Source: a virus. Taken from it: a DNA stretch of 37,128 bases. Shown here one piece after another: positions 29,634 through 30,655 of the stretch. The position numbers and the translations under genes are program-made. Position 1 is the first letter of the stretch, and the number at the start of each line of letters is the position of its first letter. The DNA lies in the IMG/VR virus record IMGVR_UViG_3300023284_002577, positions 1-37,128 of that record; one strand, written 5' to 3'. Below the pieces are notes generated by a model. That model was given only the letters and a program-made list of their open reading frames with translations. It was not told where the DNA came from and ran no database searches.

Positions 29634-30422
29634 ATGGAAAATGCAACCGGCAACAACTGCGGGCATAGCCCGACTAATCCGTGCTTTTTTGAGGAAAAAA
29701 AGAGTAATCGCCCTAATATCCTTAAAATTGCTCAAGACCGGCTCATGGACTTCTATCATCTTCCTGGTAAATTCTTAACCAAACTACGCTTTGCCAATGG
29801 TCAAGACTCTCAGCAACGCTCAGAACGCCGTGAAGCCATCTCTAGCGCCCTTCAAGTTATCCTCTCCTACACCGATTTAGACACCCTACAGGTGGGCTCT
29901 CCGCAAAAGGATGGGTCTATCATGGGTATTCAGCTGGGGTTCATTAACAAGAAGATTGGGGTGCACGTTAAACGCATTTACAGAGCGCTTATGGACCTTC
30001 AAATCTGTGGCTATCTTAAGATTGAATGGCGCAGACTCAAGAAGTTTGGCAATTATTTAACCATCCATAAGCTCATCCTCTTTCCCTCCCTATTCCATCA
30101 TTTGGATATTAGTCAATTAAAGCTCAATATGAGCCAACACTACAAACGCAAAAGTATCGCCAAGAAAGCCAAGCAAGAAGCGCAAGCGCCTATGACCCAA
30201 CAACAACGCGTCACCGGCCAAGCTAATGTGGCACGCCTGCGTTCTATTGTACAGAATGTGACCAACAACGTTTCTCTTAAGCAATCCCGCGAAACTCGCC
30301 GCACCGCTTATACCGAAAAATATTACGACGATCGCCTTTATTATTACCAACAGCTTCAAACTCAAGGGTTCAGCATGGAAGAGGCGAAAGCTAAAGCCGA
30401 TGGTAAATACCCAGTCTCGTGA
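29634..30422 (+). CDS. Putative iteron-type replication initiator (Rep-like)
   Basis: 262-aa basic protein immediately upstream of the DnaA boxes and iterons. The central segment (VKRIYRALMDLQICGYLKIEWRR) looks like a winged helix. Start uncertain (29634 or 29745). Confidence 0.45.
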   Translation: MENATGNNCGHSPTNPCFFEEKKSNRPNILKIAQDRLMDFYHLPGKFLTKLRFANGQDSQQRSERREAISSALQVILSYTDLDTLQVGSPQKDGSIMGIQLGFINKKIGVHVKRIYRALMDLQICGYLKIEWRRLKKFGNYLTIHKLILFPSLFHHLDISQLKLNMSQHYKRKSIAKKAKQEAQAPMTQQQRVTGQANVARLRSIVQNVTNNVSLKQSRETRRTAYTEKYYDDRLYYYQQLQTQGFSMEEAKAKADGKYPVS

Positions 30423-30529
30423 GCTAACCCTCGTTTCACACTCCAACTCCGTGAGCTCCATTCTGTCGCTCAAAGTTTAACCAATCCTCACTCAAAAATA
30501 GGCACACCCTCATATTTTACGCAACCCCT

Positions 30530-30561
30530 TGTGGATAACTCTGTGTACAACCTGTGGATAA
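30530..30561. promoter_or_regulatory. Three phased DnaA-box-like 9-mers (TGTGGATAA, TGTGTACAA, TGTGGATAA)
   Basis: Perfect boxes at 30530-30538 and 30553-30561, with a 7/9 box at 30542-30550. Spacing is 12 and 11 bp. Confidence 0.65.
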
Positions 30562-30578
30562 CTCGATTCGCTCGTTAA

Positions 30579-30655
30579 TTAAGTGTCTTGATGGAGCCTT
30601 CAAAGTACCTGCTTTTAAATTAAGTGTCCTGATGTTCAAATTTAAGTGTCCTGTT
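30579..30655. repeat. Three iterons TTAAGTGTC(C/T)TG(A/T)T; putative origin of replication
   Basis: Copies start at 30579, 30620 and 30642, so spacing is 41 and 22 bp. They lie directly after the DnaA boxes and downstream of the rep-like gene. Confidence 0.65.

Follow-up and report, generated by a model that had tools for sequence, protein, structure and literature searches.

How does an integrase-less phage with a P22-like head begin to copy its genome, and what does it signify if the apparatus for doing so is that of a plasmid? These questions are raised by the IMG/VR virus record IMGVR_UViG_3300023284_002577, a stretch of 37,128 nucleotides that was analysed at its full length (hereafter the window). 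In this DNA, a gene for a basic protein, Rep, is followed by a cluster of DnaA boxes, a set of short direct repeats (iterons) that share the 9-mer TTAAGTGTC, and an AT-rich segment. The interval from 29.4 to 30.7 kb is very probably the replication-initiation module of the phage, and of plasmid type, an assignment that is based on homology, on motif anatomy, and on conservation across plasmids and phages. The elements of the module are listed below in the numbering of the window.

29380..29633, no strand assigned: divergent region that separates rep from the leftward early operon, with direct repeats and promoter-like hexamers on both strands; presumed control region
29634..30422, plus strand: rep, whose product is a basic winged-helix initiator of replication, assigned to the RepP-11A-like family and distantly related to IncFII/IncL-M RepA
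30530..30561, minus strand: three head-to-tail DnaA boxes, read on the plus strand as TGTGGATAA (30530-30538), TGTGTACAA (30542-30550) and TGTGGATAA (30553-30561)
30579..30590, plus strand: iteron 1, TTAAGTGTCTTG, with an exact copy of TTAAGTGTC
30620..30631, plus strand: iteron 2, TTAAGTGTCCTG, also with an exact copy
30642..30653, plus strand: iteron 3, TTAAGTGTCCTG, 22 bp after iteron 2; the pair formed by iterons 2 and 3 is the conserved core of the family origins
30654..30710, no strand assigned: AT-rich region (79-82% AT) containing ATCTAG (30658-30663) ... ATATCTA (30670-30676), the presumed site of DNA unwinding and helicase loading

An initiator of a plasmid family

The open reading frame of rep encodes 262 amino acids with a calculated isoelectric point of 9.89, lysine and arginine together numbering 42 against 22 for aspartate and glutamate. 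When compared by tblastn with 72,556 plasmids, Rep matches 268 records with E values down to 2e-25, distributed among Pseudomonas, Burkholderia, Aeromonas, Legionella and other genera, and including a Methylocaldum gene annotated as RepA. The family is a large, gammaproteobacterial one of plasmid initiators: an exhaustive HMMER search places 528 representative clusters in it at E<=1e-3, and alignments of its members reveal the conserved motifs GNxCGHxP, RQQRSERREA, YTDLxSLRVGxP and RxxRAxxDL. The phage reading frame is intact and retains all of these motifs, and both sequence similarity and motif content place its product among the RepP-11A-like initiators. The namesake, repP-11A of the IncP-11 plasmid RP1-1 (LC700336), matches Rep in tblastn with an E value of 7e-18 and approximately 34% identity over residues 3-183, and a mini-RP1-1 construct transformed P. 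aeruginosa only when repP-11A was included (bioRxiv 10.1101/2024.09.03.610885, Supplemental Text S1). In Legionella plasmids the homologous gene is divergent from parA/parB, which is the classic position of a rep gene and its replicon beside parAB. Rep also has a direct but weak match to PHROG 4221, “replication initiation protein”, with an E value of 1.2e-4.

A more remote kinship is apparent with the initiators of the IncFII and IncL/M plasmids. Residues 15-223 of Rep align colinearly with positions 4-219 of the 266-position NCBIfam model RepA_IncFII_LM (NF040977; E 2.6e-7, some 210 residues), which is likewise matched by four of seven family members that were compared with it. Because Rep nevertheless falls below the curated thresholds of both this model and its Pfam counterpart, it is best regarded as a distant homologue and not as a member of the IncFII RepA group; judged by profile similarity, the Rep family as a whole is a sub-threshold relative that lies outside that family proper. 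By contrast with RepA, the Rep_3 domains (PF01051 / PF21205) find no match in Rep even at E<=10, and a sequence search of the PDB with the Rep-family profile returned nothing significant, including no match to RepE, pi or RepA. An AlphaFold model of Rep (predicted local distance difference test, pLDDT, 86.9) displays a winged helix at residues 101-149 followed by long helices. Foldseek comparison of Rep with the PDB yields weak matches only, to MarR-type winged helices and staphylococcal RepA_N initiators (best E 8e-3), and since the sequence search was also null, the class of the fold beyond the winged helix is without confirmation from a structural template.

Anatomy of the predicted origin

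The origin begins 108 bp past the rep stop codon. The first and third of its DnaA boxes are perfect and the middle one carries two mismatches, the successive spacings being 12 and 11 bp; the plus-strand form TGTGGATAA is equivalent to TTATCCACA on the minus strand. The iterons follow at intervals of 41 bp (30579 to 30620) and 22 bp (30620 to 30642). The exact 9-mer TTAAGTGTC occurs three times, always at these iterons and nowhere else in the 37 kb, and with approximately 0.14 exact copies expected per strand, the presence of three within 75 bp is far beyond chance. Directly after the last iteron, positions 30654-30700 are 79% AT, compared with a mean of 61% for the window. Both the minimum of the cumulative GC skew and the switch in the direction of transcription are located at approximately 30.5 kb.

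The preliminary description of this DNA, which was made from the sequence alone, had correctly recognized a basic Rep-like protein of 262 residues, three phased DnaA boxes of which two are perfect, and three copies of TTAAGTGTC(C/T)TG at 41- and 22-bp spacing, although the functional unit runs past 30655, where that description had ended it, and into the AT-rich stretch. Its broader view, that a plasmid-type Rep is combined here with an iteron-bearing origin, gains support from the 268 plasmid matches, from the similarity to RepA_IncFII_LM and from the conservation of the layout. Rep, however, is not a classic iteron-plasmid initiator, and the term “iteron-controlled” is unsupported because the protein is a relative of IncFII RepA and copy control in the IncFII plasmid R1 is exerted by antisense RNA and not by iterons. 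Among the families in which relatives had been envisaged (Rep_3, RepA and RPA), only RepA is represented, at a sub-threshold distance; Rep is neither a Rep_3 nor an RPA protein.

Upstream of rep, the presumed control region, which is not conserved in relatives, includes a pair of 18-bp direct repeats (ATATCCAACTTATCTTGG and ATATTCAAGTTATCTTGG; 29442-29477). The possibility that these repeats are inverted half-iterons serving autoregulation seemed unpromising, their resemblance to TTAAGTGTC, as judged by eye, extending to only about five of nine positions. An 82-residue reading frame at 29339-29587 was considered as a conserved CopB- or leader-type partner and was discarded, there being no alignment with the small upstream reading frames of the relatives. 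The rep leader includes minus-strand hairpins that resemble terminators (29524-29512 and 29660-29643). Apart from two tRNAs, no antisense RNA or other Rfam family was detected in 29000-33000, and window scans, Rfam and the comparison of upstream reading frames disclosed neither extra control iterons nor a convincing antisense-RNA system.

Conservation of the origin in bacterial and plasmid loci

From a sequence standpoint, the decisive evidence that this segment is an origin is comparative. In ten hand-fetched plasmid and phage loci, TTAAGTGTC-like repeats and DnaA boxes are found 130-300 bp downstream of the rep stop codon. A wider scan of one genome per GTDB species yielded 79 Rep-family loci, 75 of them usable, in which TTAAGTGTC was counted at no more than one mismatch, on the rep strand, within 500 bp after the rep stop codon, with an upstream region of the same size as control. 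The repeat is present downstream of rep, 130-290 bp past the stop codon, in 68 of 75 loci compared with 4 of 73 upstream controls, in counts that are not fully independent since about 20 of the loci derive from a single metagenome-assembled genome (MAG). At least two copies are present in 59 of the 75, nearly always 22-23 bp apart, and DnaA boxes (no more than one mismatch) accompany 43, as against 8 of 73 controls.

The downstream TTAAGTGTC pattern spans Methylococcales, Legionella, Competibacter, Halomonadaceae, Pseudomonas and Marinobacter. The three-copy arrangement of the phage, with spacings of about 42 and 22 bp, recurs in Methylococcales loci (L018, L019, L040, L042 and L043), and the iteron pattern makes Methylococcales-like gammaproteobacteria the probable host group. 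The 60 bp that follow the last iteron are AT-richer than their own locus in 50 of 56 distinct family origins, and the element within them takes the form TTAATCAG...ATCAGAAG in Pseudomonas plasmids and ATCTAG...ATATCTA in the phage. The layout that emerges from this analysis as typical of the family, namely at least two TTAAGTGTC copies at 22-23 bp followed by an AT-rich element, is also that of the phage. Viewed across the family, the combination of repeats, DnaA boxes and AT-rich element appears to be a conserved origin signature and not a set of chance repeats or a promoter operator.

One gammaproteobacterial MAG (CBDALO01...), the source of the non-independent loci mentioned above, carries about 20 copies of a module consisting of Rep, a DnaA box and two iterons, at loci (L057, L059-L068, L072, L075, L078-L080, L083 and L092) that are dispersed over many contigs, among them some that bear the labels chromosome_1 and chromosome_2. 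The distribution is suggestive either of a genome that is highly multipartite or rich in plasmids, or of a repeated mobile replicon.

The module in related phages

The closest relatives of Rep, at 40-52% identity, reside on uncultured phage contigs: L097 (34,759 bp), L101 (37,376 bp), the near-identical pair L098/L099, and L100. The three that are long enough to display gene order (L097, L098/L099 and L101) share that of the window, with a leftward early operon containing YqaJ/RecE-like genes (and RecT in two cases), a divergent rep, the origin, and a series of small genes, after which TerS follows in L097 and L101. On each of the five contigs there are TTAAGTGTCC-like iterons, two or three in number, at spacings of 41-52 and 23 bp; each also retains the ATCTAG..ATATCTA AT-rich element and has one to four DnaA boxes, which vary in position and orientation.

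The closest relative is L104, in which TerL is 91% identical and the portal, a 445-residue protein and the coat are 93-95% identical. More distant relatives in TerL (L105-L107, 49-65% identical) possess other early modules, for replication or recombination, so that, within a broader group of phages sharing the P22-like head, the replicon is a mosaic element. At 59-517 of L104, a gene with a SocA_Panacea domain lies directly upstream of the homologue of 32216-32518 of the window, where the same position is occupied by the largely non-coding tRNA region, a local exchange of modules near the origin. Elsewhere, relatives are scarce: 25 kb of the window had no megablast match among 50,697 phage records, the origin region matched phage records in blastn through its tRNA only, and scans of IMG/VR with Rep alone and with TerL alone recovered no relative, while a scan with the Rep alignment recovered six viral contigs, none closely related; looking up the exact Rep sequence of the window returned no record. 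Relatives were drawn from the metagenomes ERR13769222, SRR31656000, JGI 3300050175 and SRR24495958.

A model for initiation

A scheme for the action of the module can be drawn by analogy with the origins of IncFII R1, pSC101 and P1. Rep would bind the three TTAAGTGTC(C/T)TG iterons, which, being 22 and 41 bp apart, would present themselves on the same face of the helix, and host DnaA would oligomerize on the three adjoining boxes with their 11-12-bp phasing. Together, Rep and DnaA might then open the AT-rich region at 30654-30710. Recruitment of host DnaB/DnaC, primase (DnaG) and Pol III is the expected next step, because the phage has no recognized helicase, primase or polymerase of its own, and replication would be of the theta type. 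Rep may act preferentially in cis, which would fit the position of the origin directly downstream of rep, as in IncFII R1. Subsequently, the RecE-like and RecT proteins of the adjacent early operon would probably give rise to recombination-dependent concatemers for packaging by terminase.

Several observations weigh against identifying the segment as a plasmid-type origin with its initiator. The score of Rep with NF040977 is 30.6 bits, under a curated cut-off of 70, and that with the Pfam family PF02387 (IncFII_repA) is 16.4 bits (E 0.0064), under a gathering score of 22.9; an E value below 0.01 to PF02387 is reached by just one of 63 Rep-family members. The published oriV of RP1-1 was described as “four 12-bp repeats ... 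no DnaA box”, near nt 54,711-54,953 (bioRxiv 10.1101/2024.09.03.610885), and has no obvious correspondence to the two copies of TTAAGTGTCGG (nt 990-1060) that lie downstream of repP-11A. DnaA boxes by themselves are not diagnostic of an origin in this genome, since identical tandem boxes occur at late promoter-like sites (see below), and the GC-skew minimum is confounded by the switch in coding strand. Finally, the orphan early genes, most of which have no detectable homologues, and the 13 or so small reading frames outside the profile scans described in the next section could conceal a helicase loader, a repressor or a partition protein of a novel type.

Genome context and lifestyle

The window ends in an exact overlap of 144 bp (1-144 is identical to 36985-37128), so that the genome can be taken as complete at approximately 36,984 bp; the overlap indicates a circular assembly and a genome that is circularly permuted or terminally redundant. 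Scans against PHROG or Pfam covered about 60 of roughly 73 plausible reading frames. Recognized genes include TerS, TerL, portal, head-completion protein and coat, together with a RecE-like exonuclease, RecT, polynucleotide kinase, a spanin-like protein, an HNH nuclease and one weak helix-turn-helix (HTH) protein of 88 residues; for most early genes neither database suggests a function. The label “P22-like” given in the preliminary description is supported for the head module, in which a portal, a gp10-type head-completion protein and a coat are all present: PHROG portal and major-head matches occur in the window, and L104 carries PF16510 P22_portal, PF11134 Phage_stabilise and, weakly, PF11651 P22_CoatProtein. 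That description had also reported no integrase, excisionase, primase, helicase, polymerase or par gene. The scans of the roughly 60 reading frames agree on every count, the nearest approach to an excisionase being one weak match at chance level (18931-19356, E 0.008). They recognized, in addition, no partition ATPase/ParA, ParB, toxin-antitoxin pair, multimer-resolution gene or CI-type repressor.

It is in this setting that the purpose of the module has to be considered. The absence of recognizable partition, addiction and repressor functions, both here and in the syntenic relatives, along with the tRNAs and the orphan early genes, favors the view that the module probably serves replication during productive infection, in a phage that is non-integrating and probably virulent. 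The main competing view is that the genome is a phage-plasmid, in which Rep and the origin maintain an extrachromosomal plasmid prophage in the manner of P1 oriR/RepA, with lytic replication perhaps sharing the same origin. Such a lifestyle is unlikely, but there is a case for it: the genome is complete and no integrase was detected in it, morphogenesis genes are combined with the initiator of a true plasmid family, and some carriers of related Rep proteins do have partition genes. Pseudomonas phage PARCL1pr (MZ496292), a circular record, has rep followed by a ParA-like gene misnamed bchL, an Aeromonas caviae “plasmid” of 39 kb with a Rep relative has ParA, and many Rep relatives of 320-350 residues are found on 34-44-kb contigs of Pseudomonas and Halomonas isolates.

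Against this stands the lack of any recognized gene for partition, addiction, multimer resolution or CI-type repression in the scanned reading frames, a lack that extends to the precomputed Pfam tracks of the syntenic L097, L098 and L101. Moreover, no phage gene other than rep is shared with the 79 bacterial Rep-family loci, and the portal has no match in the 72,556 plasmid records; possession of two tRNA genes and of numerous very small orphan early genes is more usual in virulent phages. The closest characterized relatives of the portal, at about 23% identity, belong to marine podophages of Thalassomonas (phage BA3), Vibrio and Shewanella. These podophages were isolated as lytic phages.

As an observation in its own right, the 39.6-kb PARCL1pr record displays, at 2920-5334, a Rep of the 320-350-residue branch beside its ParA-like gene, and the occurrence of this branch on the Pseudomonas and Halomonas contigs of 34-44 kb probably reflects an undescribed group of small phage-plasmids. 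Most of the phage-plasmid groups known so far consist of large sipho- or myoviruses that have partition systems (PMC11652158).

In a different interpretation of the same locus, Rep regulates transcription as a winged-helix protein for which the TTAAGTGTC repeats serve as operators, and the region is a regulatory hub instead of an origin. The Pfam matches of Rep-family members are to generic HTH or winged-helix families (HTH_36, HTH_24 and HTH_Crp_2), one plasmid homologue is annotated as “Crp/Fnr family transcriptional regulator”, MarR regulators head the Foldseek list, and the region lies at a divergence of transcription. This interpretation is nonetheless very improbable, given that repP-11A is needed for establishment of the mini-replicon, that the colinear similarity to RepA_IncFII_LM is significant, and that Legionella plasmids have the gene next to parAB, where a rep gene is canonically found. 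In addition, the repeats are situated downstream of the gene and not at a promoter, with no convincing promoter overlapping them in the window, and DnaA boxes and an AT-rich element consistently accompany them. A further suggestion is that plasmid DNA was captured recently, and may not function, or that the assembly is chimeric, so that the module would be foreign to the biology of the phage. It could draw on the slightly higher GC content of rep (45%, versus 33-35% in flanking early regions) and on the mosaicism of the wider TerL-related clade, but has next to no likelihood. The same module and gene order recur in at least four independent phage contigs from different samples, and the noncoding core of iterons and AT-rich element has been retained while Rep diverged to about 45% identity, which points to long residence under selection; the rep reading frame of the window is, moreover, intact and retains all family motifs.

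The predicted origin is followed by two tRNA-like genes. The one at 31064-31134 (71 nt) scores 49.8 bits in Rfam and is called tRNA-Ser(CGA) by ARAGORN; it is without the long variable arm expected of tRNA-Ser, and similar genes in Stenotrophomonas phages are annotated as tRNA-Pro. The other, at 30788-30886 (99 nt, 31.7 bits), contains an insertion of about 30 nt and is not called by ARAGORN. The latter gene has at its 3′ end a 17-nt sequence, ACTCCCTCTTTCTTCCT (30871-30887), an exact copy of which follows directly after the former (31137-31153); this resembles the duplication of tRNA 3′ ends at att-type sites, yet no integrase was found in the scans. Between the two tRNAs, at 30889-30976, is a direct repeat of 34 nt (82% identical copies, 54 bp apart), the second copy of which overlaps a promoter-like TTGACT-18-TATCCT at 30951. 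At 28443-29175, on the minus strand, are three adjacent genes of about 80 codons that look like tandem paralogues, the DNA at approximately 28500-28620 being similar to that at approximately 28985-29105; their products are cysteine-rich and zinc-ribbon-like, with no family match except for one weak PHROG of unknown function.

DnaA boxes at late promoter-like sites

The perfect DnaA box TGTGGATAA occurs six times in the window, always on the same strand, where approximately 0.14 would be expected, and tandem pairs of boxes number five, compared with 0.11 in shuffles. Outside the origin there are three pairs with 11-bp phasing (1097/1108, 6573/6584 and 7304/7315) and a single perfect box at 2478. 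Each of these sites abuts or overlaps a top-ranking promoter-like site on the plus strand of the late operon.

1097-1116, 2478-2486, 6573-6592 and 7304-7323: late-operon DnaA-box sites in intergenic gaps among the packaging and head genes; pattern of the pairs TTGTGGATAAnCTGTGkrTAA
1099, plus strand: late promoter-like site, TGGATA-18-TATAAT
2472, plus strand: late promoter-like site, TTTACT-16-TATAAT
6596, plus strand: late promoter-like site, TTGATT-17-TATAAT
7327, plus strand: late promoter-like site, TTGACT-17-TATTCT

The promoter matches are sigma-70-like, and the box pairs lie against or inside the -35 regions of three of them, the single box being located in the spacer of the fourth. 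All of these sites are kept in L104, including where the flanking sequence has diverged. Tandem late boxes are absent from L105-L107, and because they are conserved only in the very close relative, they are not a feature of the whole clade.

The late boxes may regulate late transcription, or may bind a phage factor of the same specificity. Conceivably, although this is a tentative proposal that is more apt to fail than to hold, host DnaA participates in two circuits, helping to fire the origin and gating transcription of the packaging and head genes through the late-site boxes. Late expression would in that case be coupled to the availability of DnaA, for example by titration of the protein as origins multiply.

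Implications

The present assignment provides an origin and an initiator for an undescribed clade of integrase-less, P22-like phages of approximately 35-37 kb that is known only from metagenomes. It also implies that this clade borrows its initiation from a widespread and little-studied family of plasmid replicons (IncP-11-like). The consensus origin of that family, consisting of two TTAAGTGTC copies at 22-23 bp, an AT-rich TAATC(A/T)G...ATC(A/T)(G/A) element and optional DnaA boxes, could assist in typing replicons and predicting origins in plasmids from Pseudomonas, Legionella, Methylococcales and Halomonadaceae. Furthermore, the phage offers a clean case in which to ask whether the presence of a plasmid replicon should be read as the sign of a plasmid lifestyle in a phage: here Rep is present and partition genes were not found, whereas PARCL1pr has both.

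Comparison with known replication systems

The closest known system is the IncP-11 replicon of RP1-1, which has a homologous initiator with the same conserved motifs and, about 160 bp past the stop codon, TTAAGTGTC repeats that are 22 bp apart and are followed by the AT-richer TTAATCAG...ATCAGAAG element. RP1-1 is, however, a self-transmissible plasmid of 55 kb (bioRxiv 10.1101/2024.09.03.610885) from a host of 63% GC, while the present element is a phage. The RP1-1 locus has two iterons and no DnaA box, compared with three of each in the phage.

A more distant counterpart is IncFII/IncL-M RepA together with the oriR of R1, to which Rep is related by the colinear similarity described above. 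In R1, repA is followed directly by the origin, in which a DnaA box adjoins the RepA-binding region and an AT-rich segment comes next; R1 RepA is preferentially cis-acting, and theta replication depends on host DnaB, DnaC and DnaG. Direct iterons with 22-bp spacing have no parallel in R1, and the phage Rep remains below both curated cut-offs. The copy number of R1 is set by the CopA antisense RNA, CopB and the tap leader peptide, for which no equivalents were identified in the phage.

Among phages, the same Rep family is encoded by PARCL1pr (MZ496292) and by the Aeromonas phages Ahp2 and AhyVDH1. In the two that were examined, PARCL1pr and Ahp2, a perfect DnaA box is located 80-140 bp downstream of rep and is followed by short TAAGT-type repeats. 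The Rep proteins of the three are only 26-37% identical to that of the window, and their iteron sequences differ; PARCL1pr, moreover, has a ParA-like gene beside rep, and Ahp2 has P2-like tail genes (gpD and tape measure).

P1 is likewise a phage with a plasmid-style initiator gene, iterons and DnaA boxes that relies on the host replication machinery. Its RepA is of the Rep_3 type, its incA iterons provide control by handcuffing, and it is a myovirus of 94 kb with parABS, toxin-antitoxin, the C1 repressor and a separate lytic replicon (repL), none of which was found in the present phage. In the O/P-ori system of lambda, a phage initiator also binds direct repeats beside an AT-rich region and recruits host DnaB. 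Lambda differs in having its iterons embedded in the O gene, in encoding a dedicated helicase loader (P) and in lacking DnaA boxes in its ori, and its O protein is unrelated by sequence. A phage that uses an initiator and origin of a plasmid family is, in the light of these comparisons, a further example of a known arrangement and not a new kind of system.

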